Under the pieces are notes generated by a model. The model did not search any database and was not told the origin of the DNA. It was given only the letters and a program-made list of their open reading frames with translations. This document shows positions 2,950 to 63,162 of a DNA stretch of 64,000 nucleotides, in pieces. Each line of letters opens with the position of its first letter. The stretch's first letter is position 1. This stretch comes from a virus (Duplodnaviria > Caudoviricetes), in IMG/VR virus record IMGVR_UViG_3300017780_003104, positions 147,725 to 211,724 of that record. One strand, given 5' to 3'. A program made the translations under genes and the position numbers.

Positions 2950-4605
2950 ATGTTTGAGAATAAAAGAAACGCAGAAGTCGTGACTGTTAAATCAGTTACT
3001 CGTAAGGAAGTTAACGCATTCCTAAACAATGCTAAAGCAGAATCATCCAAGACTCGTTCTGGTAACGGGGCATTGAAATTCAGTTCAAGTGGTGATTCGT
3101 TTACCGATCAGTTTACTAAGGCTGGTAAGTATAAGGAACCTCGTAAGTTCTCTCAAATCGCACAAGATTGTGAAATGTTGTGGGGTGAAGACCCTCTCAA
3201 GTGTGTGAAGTTCGCATTGTTTCTTCGTACTATTCCTCGCGTAGTTAATCTTCCTGATGGAAGTAAGACTGAACTTCCTCAAAAGGGAACCGAGTTGAAG
3301 CATGAAGCAATTATGCGTATGCTTTGGTTGAGTGATAAGTCTCCTCAAGCATTCTGGAATAACATTCTATTGTTTGTTTCTCTTGGATCTTGGCACGATG
3401 TTTTCACTATGCTTCAATATGATCTTAGCTACAACGGTTGGAATAATCGTAAGCTTGATTGGGATAAGTTTGGTGAGTTGATTCTTGCTGGTCTTAACAA
3501 TAAGAACACCTGTGATCTTATTAAGAAGTATCTTCCTCAAATCAAGTCTCGTAGTCAAGCTACGACTATTGATGCTCAATCCAACAATGCTATTGCTAAG
3601 TGGATTTGCTCTCTAGTCTTTGGTAACAAGGAAAGCGCATCTTCATACAAGGCTTATCGTAAGATCAAGACTAGTGGAACCGCGCATGATTGGCAAAAGC
3701 TTATCTCCCAAAAGAGAATGAGTGAATTGGATTTCAATAAAATTCATGGTCGTGCTCTATCAATTCTTGTTAAGAGTAAGTTCTTAAAGAACCAAGGACT
3801 TAGCGATAAGTATGCATCTTGGATTACTGCACCTACCACCAAGGAAGTTAAGTATACTGGATTCGTCCATGAACTCTTCGAAGGTAACTGGAAGAACGAT
3901 AAGAACAACGAAGCAACTATCAATAAGCAATTCGATACTCTTGTTCAAAAGGCAAGAACTAATGAAGTTACTGATTTGATTGTCGTTCGTGATACTTCTG
4001 GATCGATGTCTTCAATTTGTCCCGGCACTAAGTCTTCATGTCTTGATGTTGGAAAGGCAATCGCTCTATACTTTAGTGAATTCCTTCAAGGAACCTTTGC
4101 GGGTCATTGGATTGAATTCAACTCTGATGCTAAACTTCAAAAATGGGTTGGTCAAACTCCCGTTGATAAGTGGAAGAATGATAAGTCAAGCTTTTATGGT
4201 GGAACTAACTTTCAAAGTGTTGTTAATCTTCTCGCTAAGATGAAGAAAGAGGGAACACCTGAAAGTGATTTCCCTAGCGGTATCCTTTGCATTTCCGATG
4301 CAGAATTCAATCCTACTTCATTAGGTAAAACTAATGTTGAGACTGCGTTGACTACTCTTCGTAATGCTGGATTCTCCAAGGCTTATGTTGATAACTTTGT
4401 GATTATTCTTTGGAACCTTCAAAATAGTTATTATGGTAAAGGGTCTGGTGAAAAGTTTGAGACTGGTAAAGAAGTAAACAACGTTTACTATCTGGGTGGG
4501 TATAGTGCCTCCGCAGTTAGTTTCCTTTCAGCTAAGATCAAGACAACCTATGATCTAATCAACGAGTGTCTTAATCAGGAAGTTTTGAATATGGTTGAGA
4601 TTTAA
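2950..4605 (+). CDS. DUF2828-like TROVE/Ro60-related protein with C-terminal vWA domain
   Basis: N-terminal SGNGALKFSSSGD...WGEDPLKCVKFALFLR; vWA MIDAS VRDTSGSMS, GGTNF, CISDAEF, ILWNL; 551 aa, Ro60-like size. Confidence 0.75.
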   Translation: MFENKRNAEVVTVKSVTRKEVNAFLNNAKAESSKTRSGNGALKFSSSGDSFTDQFTKAGKYKEPRKFSQIAQDCEMLWGEDPLKCVKFALFLRTIPRVVNLPDGSKTELPQKGTELKHEAIMRMLWLSDKSPQAFWNNILLFVSLGSWHDVFTMLQYDLSYNGWNNRKLDWDKFGELILAGLNNKNTCDLIKKYLPQIKSRSQATTIDAQSNNAIAKWICSLVFGNKESASSYKAYRKIKTSGTAHDWQKLISQKRMSELDFNKIHGRALSILVKSKFLKNQGLSDKYASWITAPTTKEVKYTGFVHELFEGNWKNDKNNEATINKQFDTLVQKARTNEVTDLIVVRDTSGSMSSICPGTKSSCLDVGKAIALYFSEFLQGTFAGHWIEFNSDAKLQKWVGQTPVDKWKNDKSSFYGGTNFQSVVNLLAKMKKEGTPESDFPSGILCISDAEFNPTSLGKTNVETALTTLRNAGFSKAYVDNFVIILWNLQNSYYGKGSGEKFETGKEVNNVYYLGGYSASAVSFLSAKIKTTYDLINECLNQEVLNMVEI

Positions 4606-4750
4606 ATATCTTAAACTTTCTATCTAAAAAGAGAGTGGAGTCTTTGTAAATAAAGTTTCCGATGCGACCAACTTTATCTAGAATCAATAGACAAGCCGAC
4701 TGATTTGGAAAAATTTACAATGACAATAATAACAGCAAAATTAGAAGAGG

Positions 4751-4779
4751 TTGACAAATCTAAATTTCATGATTAAATA
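4751..4779 (+). promoter_or_regulatory. sigma70-like promoter upstream of RNA array
   Basis: TTGACA at 4751-4756 followed by AT-rich -10 region (TGATTAAATA). Confidence 0.5.
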
Positions 4780-5189
4780 AAGATCCGATGAGGTTTCGGT
4801 AGCTTCCTATGGCGAACAAATAAAACTACCAATAAGATTGCTTCAGCAAATATATTTTTATTTAAGGAAAAACAAAAGCAATCTGATAAGAGGACAAACT
4901 ACAAATACAAAAAATCAAACGTCCTCTGATAAGAATAAGTAACAGCAAAAACAATAAAAAATAAAAGCAAATATGCTAAACGATGAAAGTCGTCCGGGTA
5001 TCCTCACCATATTAGAGGTTGTAATATGGAGCTTAGAAGGGAGTCAATCTTAACTTATTCTGATAAAGTCATAAACTGCAAATAAAAATACTATTATGCA
5101 AAATAGCCTGTCGGTGGGTCCGAGGTAACTAAAACGGTTCGATTCCGTATCTATGACTTGCATAAAATCTCTTCAGCAAATAACGGAAC

Positions 5190-5272
5190 GTAAAACTCCC
5201 ATACGTGTGGTTCAAATCCCGCTGCTCACACTTTATTAAAAAGTGGGTATAGCCAAGTGGTAAGGCAGGAGT
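5190..5272 (+). ncRNA. circularly permuted tRNA-like module (YrlA-like), unit 5
   Basis: 3' half (actcc, T-arm TTCAAAT, tgctcac) precedes 5' half (gtgggta, D-arm gccaagtggtaaggc, ggagt). Confidence 0.85.
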
Positions 5273-5324
5273 CCAAAAACAATGAGATTTAATAGAAATA
5301 CTCCAGCAAATAACGCAACAAGGA

Positions 5325-5403
5325 ACCGTGTGTCGAACGTTCGATTCGTTCTCTCCCACCATATAAGTAAAATGGGAGGTAGCTCAGTTGGTAGAGCAAC
5401 GGT
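5325..5403 (+). ncRNA. circularly permuted tRNA-like module (Phe-like body), unit 6
   Basis: accgt-gtgtc-gaacg TTCGATT cgttc-tctccca-CCA, linker, then tgggagg-ta-gctcagttggtagagc-a-acggt. Confidence 0.88.
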
Positions 5404-5738
5404 AAGCAAAAAACATAGTATTTCGATAGGATTATATTCAGCAAATATACTACTCAACTGTTAATTGAAAAAAGTAAAAGTAATCCGATAAGAATTTCAG
5501 CAGCATAATATCGTAACTATAACGACTCTAAGGTAGCTTAGGTTTGGGAAACCAATACGGCGATGGTAGATAGGTAAACTAAGTTCTTTATAGAATATGT
5601 AAACCCTACGGGACGAACGATTGAATATTTATATATTCTTTAATGTGTCAGTGAAAGATGAAATTCTGATAAAATTAGCAACAGCAAACCAAACAAAAAT
5701 TTGACTTTTAATCAAACAATAAAATGCTAATTTGATAC

Positions 5739-6017
5739 ATGGAAATATTTTATATCATAACACTATCATTCATATTGAATGTATTATGGTCAATGATGGG
5801 TAGAGCTAGAAATAGAAACAACCTCATTTATCATGGTGTATTAGTATTTCTATCAAATCTATTATGGATTCTTTTTATGAAAAAGTTAATGACTTCCGAT
5901 ACGGAATCTTTAATATATGGAAGTATTGGTGGGACTATTGGTGCCATTTGTGGACAACCATTATCAATGTTTATTGAACGTGTGTTGAATGCTAAGAGTG
6001 ATGATCACATAGAATAA
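5739..6017 (+). CDS. small membrane protein
   Basis: 3 hydrophobic segments. Confidence 0.6.
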   Translation: MEIFYIITLSFILNVLWSMMGRARNRNNLIYHGVLVFLSNLLWILFMKKLMTSDTESLIYGSIGGTIGAICGQPLSMFIERVLNAKSDDHIE

Positions 6018-6018
6018 T

Positions 6019-6318
6019 ATGGAAGACTACTGGACAAAAAATAATCTAATCAAACCCGCATCAAGGATCGTATGTGCTGCTAATAGGCATAAAGAATCTG
6101 GTAGGATTGTCTGTGGTGCTCGTCATTGGGATAATGTAATGCGTTCACAAAAACTTGAATCAGAAACCTTTAATAATTGGGATCAAGGATTCATCAATCA
6201 ATTTGGTGAATGGTTGAATAGAGAAGAAGCGTGGGTAATTGCCGAAGAGCAGGGACAGATTAGAAATCTTTGTTACGACAAACAGACGGGTTACTTATTC
6301 AGCGAAAATTTATACTAA
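6019..6318 (+). CDS. conserved phage hypothetical protein
   Basis: IVCAA..IVCGARH..QGFINQFG..REEA..LFSENLY pattern common in large phages. Confidence 0.7.
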   Translation: MEDYWTKNNLIKPASRIVCAANRHKESGRIVCGARHWDNVMRSQKLESETFNNWDQGFINQFGEWLNREEAWVIAEEQGQIRNLCYDKQTGYLFSENLY

Positions 6319-9296: not shown

Positions 9297-9752
9297 TATG
9301 ATAACTAGTATATTTGAAACAATACATCCTTGGCTAATGACAGATCATTGTCTTAGGGAAATGGATGGAGAAGAACACCAATGTTGTAATGATCACACTG
9401 GTTGTATATGGAATGATGGTCATAACACTTGTATGTTTGATATCCCGTCTATTAAACGATATGACTCTCCCCTTCTAAAGATTAAAACCAAAATACAATA
9501 GCAACATGATTAAGAAAGAAAAGAGTGGCATTAAAAAGCTGATCCACAACACCAAATGTCTTTTGATTAAAGACTATGAGGCAAAGTTGGAATCCTCTCG
9601 GCTTACTAGGAAGATGATCTTAGAATCTACTCGCGGATCTATTAACCATTTCTATAACATGGATGGTGTTCAGATTCGTGGATACTATAAGCGTTCTACT
9701 CGTTTTAATAATGTTCTTCCTACCCATCCTCTACTTGTAAGATACAAATAAT

Positions 9753-18915: not shown

Positions 18916-19009
18916 ATGAGTGTGACCCGAATTGGTTAAGGGCGCGGTTTCATAAACCGTTATGAGGTTGATAGCCTCTTTGAGAGTTCGAGTCTCTCCA
19001 CTCATACCA
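18916..19009 (+). tRNA. tRNA with CAT anticodon (probably Ile2) and long variable arm
   Basis: gcggt-TTCATAA-accgt; ~20-nt variable arm; A73+CCA; 94 nt. Confidence 0.85.
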
Positions 19010-39150: not shown

Positions 39151-39219
39151 TGGCCTATTTAATCATAATTTCGATATTTGTCAACTGTATTGGGTAAATA
39201 TTAACACACTTACTACACA

Positions 39220-48251: not shown

Positions 48252-48265
48252 TTAAATTAATCATG

Positions 48266-48355
48266 CACCACAGGTAGGGCTTGAACCTACATAACCCGAT
48301 AAAGGGTATACGTCGAATTAACAGTTCGATCTCTTGCCAATTAGAGTACCGTGGT
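48266..48355 (-). tRNA. tRNA-Asn(GTT) with long variable arm
   Basis: tcgaa-CTGTTAA-ttcga; ~22-nt variable arm. Confidence 0.85.
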
Positions 48356-48435
48356 TTTGTGCGCGTTTTATTTTTATTCTCTTTGGACTTATCACGCTTT
48401 TGTTATCCAAATCAGTTGGGTGCTACCCAACATCG

Positions 48436-48508
48436 TGCCTCGTATGGGAATTGCACCCATGTAAAAAGAGATTTAGAGTCTCTCGCCTAACTACTCGGCC
48501 AACGAAGC
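48436..48508 (-). tRNA. amber suppressor tRNA (CTA anticodon)
   Basis: agaga-CTCTAAA-tctct; full cloverleaf; T-loop TGCAATT. Confidence 0.85.
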
Positions 48509-51314: not shown

Positions 51315-51373
51315 ATAGTTATTTAGCTGACAAGTATCAGTTTGCAACTATTTATCCTATCTTTATACTATAG

Positions 51374-51459
51374 CAATGCCGACGCGACTCGAACGCGCAC
51401 TGTTCTTGCGAACTCCTGAGTGAAAGTCAGGTAGGGTTAACCAATTTTCTTACGGCATC
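51374..51459 (-). tRNA. tRNA-Glu(TTC) with long variable arm
   Basis: cctga-CTTTCAC-tcagg; variable arm gttc-gcaa-gaac. Confidence 0.85.
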
Positions 51460-61555: not shown

Positions 61556-63128
61556 TCCACTTATAAAGTTTAGAACCACAATCCCAAGTTCTGTAAAACT
61601 TCTCTCGTCTCATAATTTCTTCCTCGGTTAAATTCTTATCGTATGATGGAAATCTAGTCAACATATGTTTTTGATATTGCAATCTATTATATCTTTCCTT
61701 GAAATATTTCGTATAGAAATAATTTGGTGGTGTATCTTTTAGATATTTCATACCGATAGCTTCGTAAACACCTCCACTATTCCAGCGTTTATCACAATAA
61801 GAATAAACCTCTAATGGGTTGACAGTCTTTGTGAAATGCTTGAATAATTTACCTGCACCTCCAATGATTTTAAAATTACTAATTGTACAGTATCTTCCAA
61901 GTTCATACACATTATCCTTTCTAGTTTTTCCCGTGGCATATCTGTTTTCGTTGAATGTCATAACTGCAACTAATCGATTTTTGTATGTCAGTCCATATCT
62001 ATGAGTTCCCCAGATACTACCTTGAATGTGATATTTGTTTAAGAATTTTTGACAGTCATCTTTAGAAACTTCCACAATTTTACACTTACGAGCATATATA
62101 CTTTTTTGAACTTTTCCAACAGCGTTCTTAATTCTTTGCAAGACTAACTTTTTCTTTTCATAGAACTCATCATCAAATAGTGTGATTAATCTAATTCCTA
62201 AAGATTCACATTCATTATGTTTAGATATGTGGTCTACTTTATTATAAGATGGGTTTGATGTAGAGTGCCAGTATAATCCAGATACTTCAATTCCCAGATT
62301 CAAAGTTGGAATATACACATCCAATTCTTTACCAGATGGTAGAATTTTCTTCCAATTATACTCGAACGGTATGCCAAGACTATCTAAATAATCCCTAACC
62401 ACTAGCTCATGTTTAGTTCCCACTGGAGAACAGTGGTCACATATCGGAGATGAGCCATTATCACATGATGATTTGAATTCTTTTTTACATTTATTACATA
62501 ACCACTTATATTGTATATATCCTTTAACTCCCACATATTCATCAATGTCGAATAATGGTTTACAATGTTTATATCTGAATGGTAATGAATTAAAAAACTT
62601 AATCCTATGAGATTCTTGAATCTTTTCTTTAGTCTCATCAGACTGGACTCGTCCAATTACTGATTGTTTATATTCATCTGTTTTAGTATAGTTGGTCACT
62701 CCATACTTTTCCAAATTTGTTTTTATAATCTTATCCTTCCCATATTGACTAGCCAATACATTGACATGTCCATATTTTTCCAAACATGTTTCCCTTTTGG
62801 TTTTCTGTATTTTATCATTATTATCCCACTTACATTTATTAGAACAGTATTGGAGAAATTGTTTTGTTGTGGTGTTGAATCGTGTTTTCTTTCCACAAGG
62901 ACATGTTGGATTTTCTAGGATATCATTCATGAAACAATAGGTCGCCAGTGAATATGGTTCGTGTAAATCTGTTGATATTTTTTGATAAATTCTTTTATAA
63001 CTATCCACTCCAATCAACTGTTTTAACAGATTTGGTCTTAGGTGTCTATAACTACCTTTATATTTTTCATCTGCAACCTTCTGAATCTTTTGTTTTATTT
63101 CCGAATCATTCATAATTATATTTACCAT
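61545..63128 (-). mobile_element. homing endonuclease (Hef-like, PD-(D/E)xK) with N-terminal repeats
   Basis: CLEKYG repeats; ELDVYIP..IEVSGLYWHS; IYARKC; next to capsid gene. Confidence 0.7.
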
Positions 63129-63162
63129 CTGCGCCTAATATGTCAACCAATTAGATAAAGAT

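Follow-up and report, generated by a model that had tools for sequence, protein, structure and literature searches.

Handle RNAs beside a Ro60-like gene in a freshwater phage: probable Y-RNA-like partners of a DUF2828/DUF7788 protein

An array of nine short, back-to-back units was located beside the gene of a Ro60-like protein, here called P0001, in the freshwater virus record IMGVR_UViG_3300017780_003104. The stretch analyzed (hereafter the window) is the last 64 kb of this 211.7-kb record with direct terminal repeats; more than 20 tRNA genes lie in the window. The array occupies 4835-5737 on the + strand, as determined by direct reading of 4300-6300 and by a mechanical scan, and starts 230 nt downstream of the P0001 gene. 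Judged from sequence, a structural model and analogy, its units are probably Y-RNA-like partner RNAs of P0001. These handle RNAs, as we term them, are apparently an uncatalogued relative of the Ro/Y-RNA particles. As a whole, this reading is one that we favour with moderate confidence on the strength of a grammar beyond chance, the Ro60 fold of the protein, gene co-occurrence, helix covariation, Y-RNA-like cargos, precedent, and a conserved promoter-like site. The units were read as partners of P0001 because a phage precedent has been shown biochemically: the Ro60 of Thermus phage phiLo binds two adjacent Y-like RNAs and host PNPase (PMC12135203). The DNA of the locus had no similarity match among deposited phages.

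Layout of the array and the handle family

All nine closing helices are perfectly Watson-Crick paired over 6-9 bp, each with its own sequence. The motif stands 0-4 nt from the 5′ strand of the helix in all units and reads CAGCAAA in six of them, with the variants CTACAAA, CTGCAAA, and CAGCATA in units 2, 4, and 8, respectively. On the 3′ side of the helix a linker of 4-5 nt follows (GATA seven times, GCATA and AATA once each), and unit length ranges from 39 to 177 nt. A first-pass annotation of the window, made from the letters alone, had described this grammar of unique helix, CAGCAAA-type motif, insert, and GATA linker, and every one of its nine units was found in place. Its closing pairs are indeed all perfect and all different, but most run 1-2 bp beyond the length it listed. 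The GATA linker is likewise present, but it belongs to a longer conserved junction with the consensus CUGAUAAG, which runs into the next stem (starting A-G/A-A/G).

For chance controls, a chain was defined as a succession of units whose helix measures 6 bp or more and whose motif is at most 5 nt away, successive units lying at most 14 nt apart. The array forms a chain of nine, compared with a maximum of three in 20 dinucleotide shuffles of the window, two in 200 shuffles of the array region, and two on the minus strand of the window. Since shuffled chains never exceeded three units, the shuffled AT-rich control that the annotation had proposed fails to refute the array. Seven of the 15 CAGCAAA sites in the 64-kb window sit in 4733-5688 on the + strand.

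Other kinds of element were considered and rejected. A CRISPR array consists of near-identical direct repeats of 23-50 nt with unique spacers, usually accompanied by cas genes; here, the helices differ in every unit, and no cas-like matches were found among the neighbouring open reading frames (ORFs). This agrees with the earlier view that the array is not a CRISPR-type repeat and escapes repeat finders, its units sharing only the motif of 6-7 nt and a junction of 4-8 nt. A hammerhead or other self-cleaving ribozyme at the junction was dismissed, the essential G of CUGAUGA being absent and no Rfam ribozyme being found there. A retron-like msr/msd, considered for its closing repeats and conserved G, was discarded as well, with no reverse transcriptase among the neighbours.

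The handle common to the family consists of a 6-9 bp helix joining the ends, a single-stranded (U)(U)ACAGCAA(A/U) straight after the 5′ strand, and C-U-G-A-U-A-A after the 3′ strand; what lies between the motif and the 3′ strand is an exchangeable cargo. In 134 units, the consensus reads U-G-A-U-A, a stem starting A-G/A-A/G, (U)(U)A-C-A-G-C-A-A-(A)-(U), the stem, and then G-A-U-A-A. Both C's of the motif and the first A after the second C are invariant or nearly so.

A covariance model, R1, was built from an alignment (A2) of 66 short units. Its seed units were picked by requiring a perfect helix, so that their 100% pairing holds by construction, and the weight is therefore carried by the held-out search figures and the strand bias. 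Pairing holds in all 308 helix cells of 44 held-out family members (33-53% in slid controls; 31-53% when those of the seed units are counted too), and double changes numbered 98 versus 27 in shuffles. Searching 65 held-out phage loci (466 kb, both strands) with R1 returned 61 matches at E ≤ 0.01, all of them on the gene's strand, in 31 loci. Over the whole 211.7-kb genome R1 matched only the array, and it gave no match in the two tRNA blocks of the window. Because R1 is blind to units with long cargos and to the shortened unit 2, its counts are lower bounds. These figures bear out the first-pass claim of structured modules with a covarying closing helix and a short fixed motif, which recur on one strand in many phages.

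The Ro60-like gene and its association with handles

The gene and the site that separates it from the array are:

2950-4605, + strand: gene of the Ro60-like protein P0001 (551 aa; DUF2828/DUF7788 family), with a TROVE-like helical ring and a C-terminal vWA domain
4751-4779, + strand: promoter-like site TTGACA-N17-TAAATA, a consensus match between gene and array

P0001 matches Pfam DUF7788 (5e-10) and PHROG 850, 'RNA-binding protein' (3e-30), and its homologues also carry DUF2828. An AlphaFold (AF2) model built from 55 homologues reached a pLDDT of 90.7 and aligned with X. laevis Ro60 at a VIA-align Z of 18.8 (root-mean-square deviation of 4.5 Å over 429 residues). In a fold search of the PDB, the top ten matches were all Ro60, Rsr, or phage phiLo Ro60 (Z 18.8-13.7, about 390-430 residues, span ~28-530). 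X. laevis was followed by human Ro60, phage phiLo Ro60, and Deinococcus Rsr, and matches to vWA only came at Z ~10. The Swiss-Prot AFDB matches to the model were the Ro60 of four species. The MIDAS residues D348-x-S350-x-S352 and several Arg/Lys of the helical part are invariant in the 55 homologues. On the model, P0001 is a Ro60-fold protein of a separate sequence family, an orthologue by structure and not by Pfam TROVE. Members of the family were counted in at least 456 deposited phage genomes and in ~1,700 metagenomic protein clusters. Neither this adjacent gene nor the largely tRNA-derived nature of the cargos had been part of the first-pass annotation.

Sites of the form TTGACA-N16-18-TAAATA occur three times in 64 kb, against 0.17 expected. 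The form with N17 also stands between the homologous gene and the array in nine loci (L003, L004, L005, and L093-L098; L numbers denote homologue loci throughout). The other two sites in the window (39156-39184 and 63119-63146, both on the - strand) may, from their sequence, mark further strong promoters of the same class. From the gene stop to the promoter-like site (4606-4750), the distance is ~146 nt here versus ~14 nt in the closest relatives. This stretch contains ACAGCAAA at 4732-4739, flanked by AAATTTA/TAAATTT, which is possibly a relic unit.

In upwards of 50 metagenomic phage loci the grammar flanks P0001 homologues, without exception on the strand of the gene; it is also carried by cultured phages of Leptolyngbya, Enterococcus, Listeria, Escherichia, Klebsiella, Bacillus, and Campylobacter. 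Across 88 homologue loci, chains of at least three units numbered 27 on the gene's strand and none on the opposite strand. Handles adjoin the gene in seven of the eight cultured phage lineages checked. There are five units downstream of the homologue in Leptolyngbya phage Lbo-JY46, three units upstream of the gene in Enterococcus phage EFDG1 (two with permuted tRNA-like cores), and three handle units 75 nt upstream of the gene in Listeria phage WIL-1. Escherichia AYO145A (Felix O1 type), Klebsiella KP2025, Bacillus Izhevsk, and Campylobacter Los1 likewise have handles next to the gene.

Unit number is variable. Relatives with a 78-95%-identical protein carry 4, 7, 8, 11, or ~12 units; unit 6 alone is missing from L093-L095, including the closest relative (95%), and strain contigs from other samples diverge exactly where units meet. 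Because counts vary among relatives and contigs diverge at unit borders, the sequences suggest that units behave as cassettes, most simply via recombination between the repeated handles. One lineage has its array 1.6 kb farther downstream, behind a homing-endonuclease gene. Homing-endonuclease-like genes (LAGLIDADG, GIY-YIG) were also noted beside or between the Ro60-like gene and the array at L100:3529-4314 (-) and L097:5536-6066 (-).

The variation among close relatives (4, 7, 8, 9, 11, ~12 units) and the contig breaks exactly at unit borders would also be expected of a DNA-level element without RNA function, in which inverted-repeat cassettes serve as recombination or mobility sites, similar to integrons or miniature inverted-repeat transposable elements. 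However, the inverted repeat is different in each unit, and the arms therefore hold no common recombinase site. In addition, the units show a strict strand bias relative to the gene, the + strand cargos fold as tRNA-like RNAs with compensatory changes, no integrase or transposase lies nearby, and exchange between repeated handles explains the cassette turnover more simply. We regard such a DNA element as very improbable.

Also on the + strand is a conserved neighbour farther upstream:

709-1506, + strand: Thg1-like gene (tRNA-His guanylyltransferase family; Pfam Thg1 1.6e-31; PHROG 4717)

A Thg1-like neighbour is also present in L093, L096, L097, and L100, and the enzyme may possibly be a functional partner. 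The gene order NAPRTase, nucleoside deoxyribosyltransferase, Thg1-like enzyme, small ORFs, Ro60-like gene, and RNA array is kept in the window and in these four loci. Among the other gene products of the genome are a CCA-adding enzyme and three RNA-ligase-family proteins; RtcB was not found.

Cargos, processing, and expression

The nine units of the array are:

4835-4884, + strand: unit 1, minimal handle RNA of 50 nt; 9-bp stem, CAGCAAA at 4844-4850, small AU hairpin; R1 52.8 bits
4889-4927, + strand: unit 2, shortened handle RNA of 39 nt; 7-bp stem, CTACAAA; no R1 match
4932-5061, + strand: unit 3, 130 nt; conserved structured cargo with three hairpins
5066-5159, + strand: unit 4, 94 nt; CTGCAAA; two hairpins and a T-arm-like hairpin, ACGG-UUCGAUU-CCGU
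5165-5290, + strand: unit 5, 126 nt; circularly permuted tRNA-like cargo with T-arm, closed acceptor hairpin, and D-arm
5295-5424, + strand: unit 6, 130 nt; YrlA-like permuted tRNA mimic with anticodon-like stem, T-arm, loop-closed acceptor, and D-arm
5429-5486, + strand: unit 7, minimal handle RNA of 58 nt; R1 57.8 bits
5491-5667, + strand: unit 8, 177 nt; CAGCATA; large conserved structured cargo including a GAAA-tetraloop hairpin
5672-5733, + strand: unit 9, minimal handle RNA of 62 nt; R1 57.8 bits

The next ORF starts at 5739, and no terminator lies between unit 9 and that ORF. In total, the cargos comprise two permuted tRNA mimics, one T-arm module, two folds without match, and four minimal units. 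The counterparts of unit 2 in L003 (5976-6032) and L093 (4330-4386) are 57 nt long with CAGCAAA; by this sequence comparison, unit 2 is probably the decayed form of a 57-nt unit that relatives keep intact. Orthologues of unit 3 in L093, L003, and L096 are 85-98% identical with four compensatory pairs, and a CCUC/GAGG pseudoknot is possible in its cargo. Unit 4 has orthologues in six loci, including the cultured Leptolyngbya phage Lbo-JY46, with 15 consensus pairs (six with compensatory changes), and unit 8 has orthologues in L093 and L003 with 43 consensus pairs (eight with compensatory changes). Permissive Rfam scans gave no match for the cargos of units 3, 4, 5, and 8.

Units 5 and 6 share the module order handle, anticodon-like 3′ strand, T-arm, loop-closed acceptor, D-arm, anticodon-like 5′ strand, and handle. 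The single-sequence fold of unit 5 was no better than that of shuffles, and its permuted order was read directly from the sequence; its T-arm and D-arm are common to, and covary in, eight permuted units from six loci. The minimum-energy fold of unit 6 is a cloverleaf with closed acceptor. Compared with the Rfam YrlA model it scored 33 bits (E 6e-5; gathering score 69), and only the tRNA-like core was aligned (model positions 23-85). After processing, a functional permuted tRNA has an open acceptor end with 3′ CCA and a 7-nt anticodon loop. Functional tRNA genes, permuted or not, were rejected for units 5 and 6, as their acceptors are closed by 11-nt loops and the anticodon position runs into the handle; neither unit was called a tRNA by ARAGORN or the Rfam tRNA model. 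A T-loop motif was detected in 41 of the 58 family units longer than 80 nt, and by their sequence most long cargos are tRNA-derived.

Strings of the type GNCGAAN0-1G, the canonical Rsr-binding type, were noted at 5612-5619 in the cargo of unit 8 (GACGAACG at 5612; conserved in L003) and at 5332-5339 in the cargo of unit 6. About 0.2 are expected by chance in 903 nt; two were seen, both inside cargos.

The main rival to partner RNAs is a processing or stability cassette. Its stem and junction would direct a host or phage RNase to free and protect tRNA-like RNAs, and the Ro60-like gene would be a mere frequent neighbour in a tRNA/RNA-repair block. The units are parted by short AU-rich single-stranded linkers beside stems, which is the usual context of RNase E/Y-type cuts. 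Arrays of Felix O1-type, Klebsiella, and Bacillus phages lie in the midst of tRNA genes, and ACAGCAA differs from the known Ro60 site (PMC4201824). Yet a processing signal needs no invariant 6-nt single-stranded motif within the released RNA, and the true tRNA genes of this genome and of related loci are without handle. Moreover, four of the nine units consist of little more than the handle, which suggests that the handle is itself the product, and handles accompany the DUF2828 gene even in loci that have no tRNA genes. On balance, we consider a mere cassette rather unlikely.

If the units are partner RNAs of P0001, as we favour, the array would be transcribed as one precursor from the TTGACA-N17-TAAATA site at 4751-4779, and a host endoribonuclease would cut this precursor within or close to the AU-rich linkers. 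Each handle would then dock on the helical ring of the protein, in the manner of the Y RNA stem on Ro60, and the cargo would be displayed, to recruit or to distract factors acting on tRNA or other structured RNA. Candidates for such factors are exoribonucleases (e.g. PNPase), tRNA repair enzymes (e.g. the neighbouring Thg1-like enzyme), and host tRNA-cleaving defences. Units would be gained and lost as cassettes at the conserved junctions.

Only one metatranscriptome holds this phage, with low-depth contigs at 4460-4682, 5083-5345, and 9297-9457 (within 20 kb). The contig at 5083-5345 crosses two linkers and neither supports nor excludes the processing in GATA linkers that the first-pass annotation had considered likely. 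This signal is too weak to call transcription, and it yields no RNA ends. Other apparent transcript matches at 5369-5402 were rejected as cellular tRNA D-arms.

Relation to Ro/Y-RNA systems and to Class I RNAs

YrlA RNAs of bacteria and mycobacteriophages are encoded no more than 4 kb from the Ro60 gene and share its strand (Chen et al. 2014, PMC4201824). The array resembles these Rsr (Ro60)-YrlA/YrlB systems (PMC4201824; RF02553) in several respects: its small RNAs lie near a Ro60-fold gene on the same strand, their 5′ and 3′ ends are paired, a short conserved motif stands near the 5′ end, and Y RNAs can occur in tandem. The tRNA-mimic effector of YrlA (T-arm, D-arm, loop-closed acceptor) has counterparts in units 5 and 6, with the T-arm only in unit 4 and none in the other six. 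In contrast to YrlA, the protein belongs to DUF2828/DUF7788, the single-stranded ACAGCAA takes the place of GNCGAAN0-1G / GGUCCGA in a bulged helix, and arrays comprise nine or more units, many without a tRNA-like part. By the Ro-binding motif and by the Rfam score (33 bits versus 69), the units do not belong to YrlA.

The Ro60 of phage phiLo with Yrl1/Yrl2 (PMC12135203; PDB 9KOP, 9L5Y) is likewise a phage-encoded Ro60 fold with adjacent RNAs (Z 15-16 to P0001). Its assembly with PNPase offers a model for a possible role of the system described here. Unlike P0001, phiLo Ro60 belongs to the canonical TROVE proteins; its two RNAs both carry CGAA, and an ACAGCAA handle and a long array are absent.

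Several points weigh against partner RNAs of P0001. Concerning the RNAs, the handle is without the canonical Ro60-binding signature (a bulged helix with GNCGAA/CGAA), and no Rfam family reaches its threshold for the units. Concerning the protein, P0001 has no Pfam TROVE match, and phmmer against the PDB gave nothing below E 0.79. Ro60-like genes also lie in tRNA-rich neighbourhoods, and proximity alone could therefore reflect shared regulation. At the locus itself there are just two low-depth metatranscriptome contigs, which could be carried-over DNA. R1 matched in only 31 of the 65 held-out loci, with most loci of a ~32%-identical protein giving none, and in Yersinia phage fHe-Yen9-04 no handle was found within 3 kb of the gene; the pairing of gene and handle is therefore frequent but perhaps not universal. 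Finally, the most highly transcribed non-coding region of Listeria phage CKA15 (26,236-26,727; PMC12282133) maps ~0.7-1.2 kb upstream of handle units and not onto them.

For CKA15, the authors put forward the speculation that abundant RNAs close to the Rsr-like gene CKA15_055 might be Y RNAs; they also detected that protein in virions (PMC12282133). CKA15_055 belongs to the same protein family as P0001 (P100-like phages), and the related phage WIL-1 carries handle units. Unlike the present work, the paper defines no RNA family, motif, or structure, and the region it locates is without handle. The only region given with coordinates does not show handle RNAs as the abundant species of CKA15. In WIL-1, the counterpart of that region (L102:1426-2010) has a strong sigma-A-type promoter followed by a non-coding stretch of ~490 nt with no ACAGCAA handle; it is therefore a separate abundant phage RNA.

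To our knowledge, the Class I RNAs of Dictyostelium have stayed functionally unexplained for 20 years and are thought to be unique to social amoebae. RF01414, their family, is the sole Rfam family that repeatedly matches the units and the best one for minimal units. In this array, the scores were 30.2 bits (unit 1; Dicty_Class_I_RNA) and 16.4 bits, with scores of 39.3, 30.7, 26.2, and 19.2 in Lbo-JY46 and 34.1, 26.1, and 20.5 in L021; no unit in 19 loci reached the gathering score of 41.5 bits. Class I RNAs have a variable stem joining the ends and, beside its 5′ strand, the 11-nt motif CCUUACAGCAA with near-invariant U3, C6, C9, A10, and A11 (Kjellin et al. 2021, PMC7919456). In the 134 family units, the corresponding positions are conserved to 100% (C6), 100% (C9), 99% (A10), 86% (A11), and 46% (U3); UUA is mostly absent in the window.

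These likenesses could reflect shared ancestry, with phage units and Class I RNAs bound by the same kind of protein, a DUF2828/DUF7788 Ro paralogue. The common layout includes a G-started, covarying stem of 6 bp and variable sequence, (CC)UUACAGCAA with UUACAGCAA directly on the 3′ side of the 5′ strand, an AU-rich body of variable sequence, and a C-U-G end (flanks AAG...CUG), in about 60 nt. Near-invariant C6, C9, A10, and A11 coincide with the invariant positions of the phage motif (PMC7919456). DUF7788 proteins of this fold also occur in cellular, apparently eukaryotic, AFDB entries, in which organisms are hidden; the ESM Atlas listing comprised viral clusters only. Against common descent, the family threshold was missed throughout, and a 6-nt motif with a short stem could arise by convergence. 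Class I genes are eukaryotic, dispersed, and single, are driven by a DUSE promoter ~60 nt upstream, and are reported to be unique to Dictyostelia, whereas the phage units form a tandem array behind a bacterial-type promoter-like site. In addition, Class I RNAs have no tRNA-like cargos and no known link to a Ro-like protein, their shown direct binder being the RRM protein Rnp1A (PMC7919456), and the DUF2828 protein of Dictyostelium that this reading calls for is hypothetical. We hold shared ancestry to be improbable. Equally doubtful, in our estimate, is its wider form, according to which the ACAGCAA handle would mark a second, ancient Ro/Y-RNA branch across phages, some bacteria, and eukaryotes. 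Class I RNAs would then be the eukaryotic members, binding a DUF2828/DUF7788 Ro paralogue, and the phage system would be a platform for modular display, its exchangeable tRNA-like cargos luring away or recruiting host enzymes that target tRNA.

The classic RNA-surveillance particles of Ro60 and Y RNA have so far been tied to one protein family (TROVE) and one RNA signature. The protein family described here is structurally equivalent but unrelated in sequence, and it occurs together with an RNA family of its own, characterized by a different handle, arrays of up to a dozen units, and swappable, mostly tRNA-derived cargos. Literature searches found no description of the handle RNA family or of a function of DUF2828/DUF7788. 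If the pairing of handle RNAs with P0001-type proteins is physical, it would assign a function to DUF2828/DUF7788 and explain long "empty" intergenic regions in widely used phages such as Felix O1, P100/A511, and the Enterococcus and Campylobacter therapy phages. It would also provide a testable design rule of handle plus cargo and a concrete hypothesis on the Class I RNAs of Dictyostelium. Neither Rfam nor tRNA finders or repeat finders detect the handle family, whose RNAs could be annotated with a covariance model of the R1 kind.

Further structured RNAs were noted in other homologue loci (L024:1427-1512, L025:5806-6208, and L035:300-633): a Hatchet ribozyme match (68.6 bits, above threshold) and two matches to phage-encoded tmRNA, likewise above threshold, at 2-3 kb or less from DUF2828 genes and arrays. 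In the main tRNA block of the window, a tRNA with anticodon CTA was found at 48435-48508 on the - strand (labelled Pyl by ARAGORN; amber-suppressor type), and the ORFs still read well under table 11. The tRNA calls for Met (94 nt, 18916-19009, +), Asn (91 nt, 48265-48355, -), and Glu (87 nt, 51373-51459, -) are overlong and may carry introns or extra arms.

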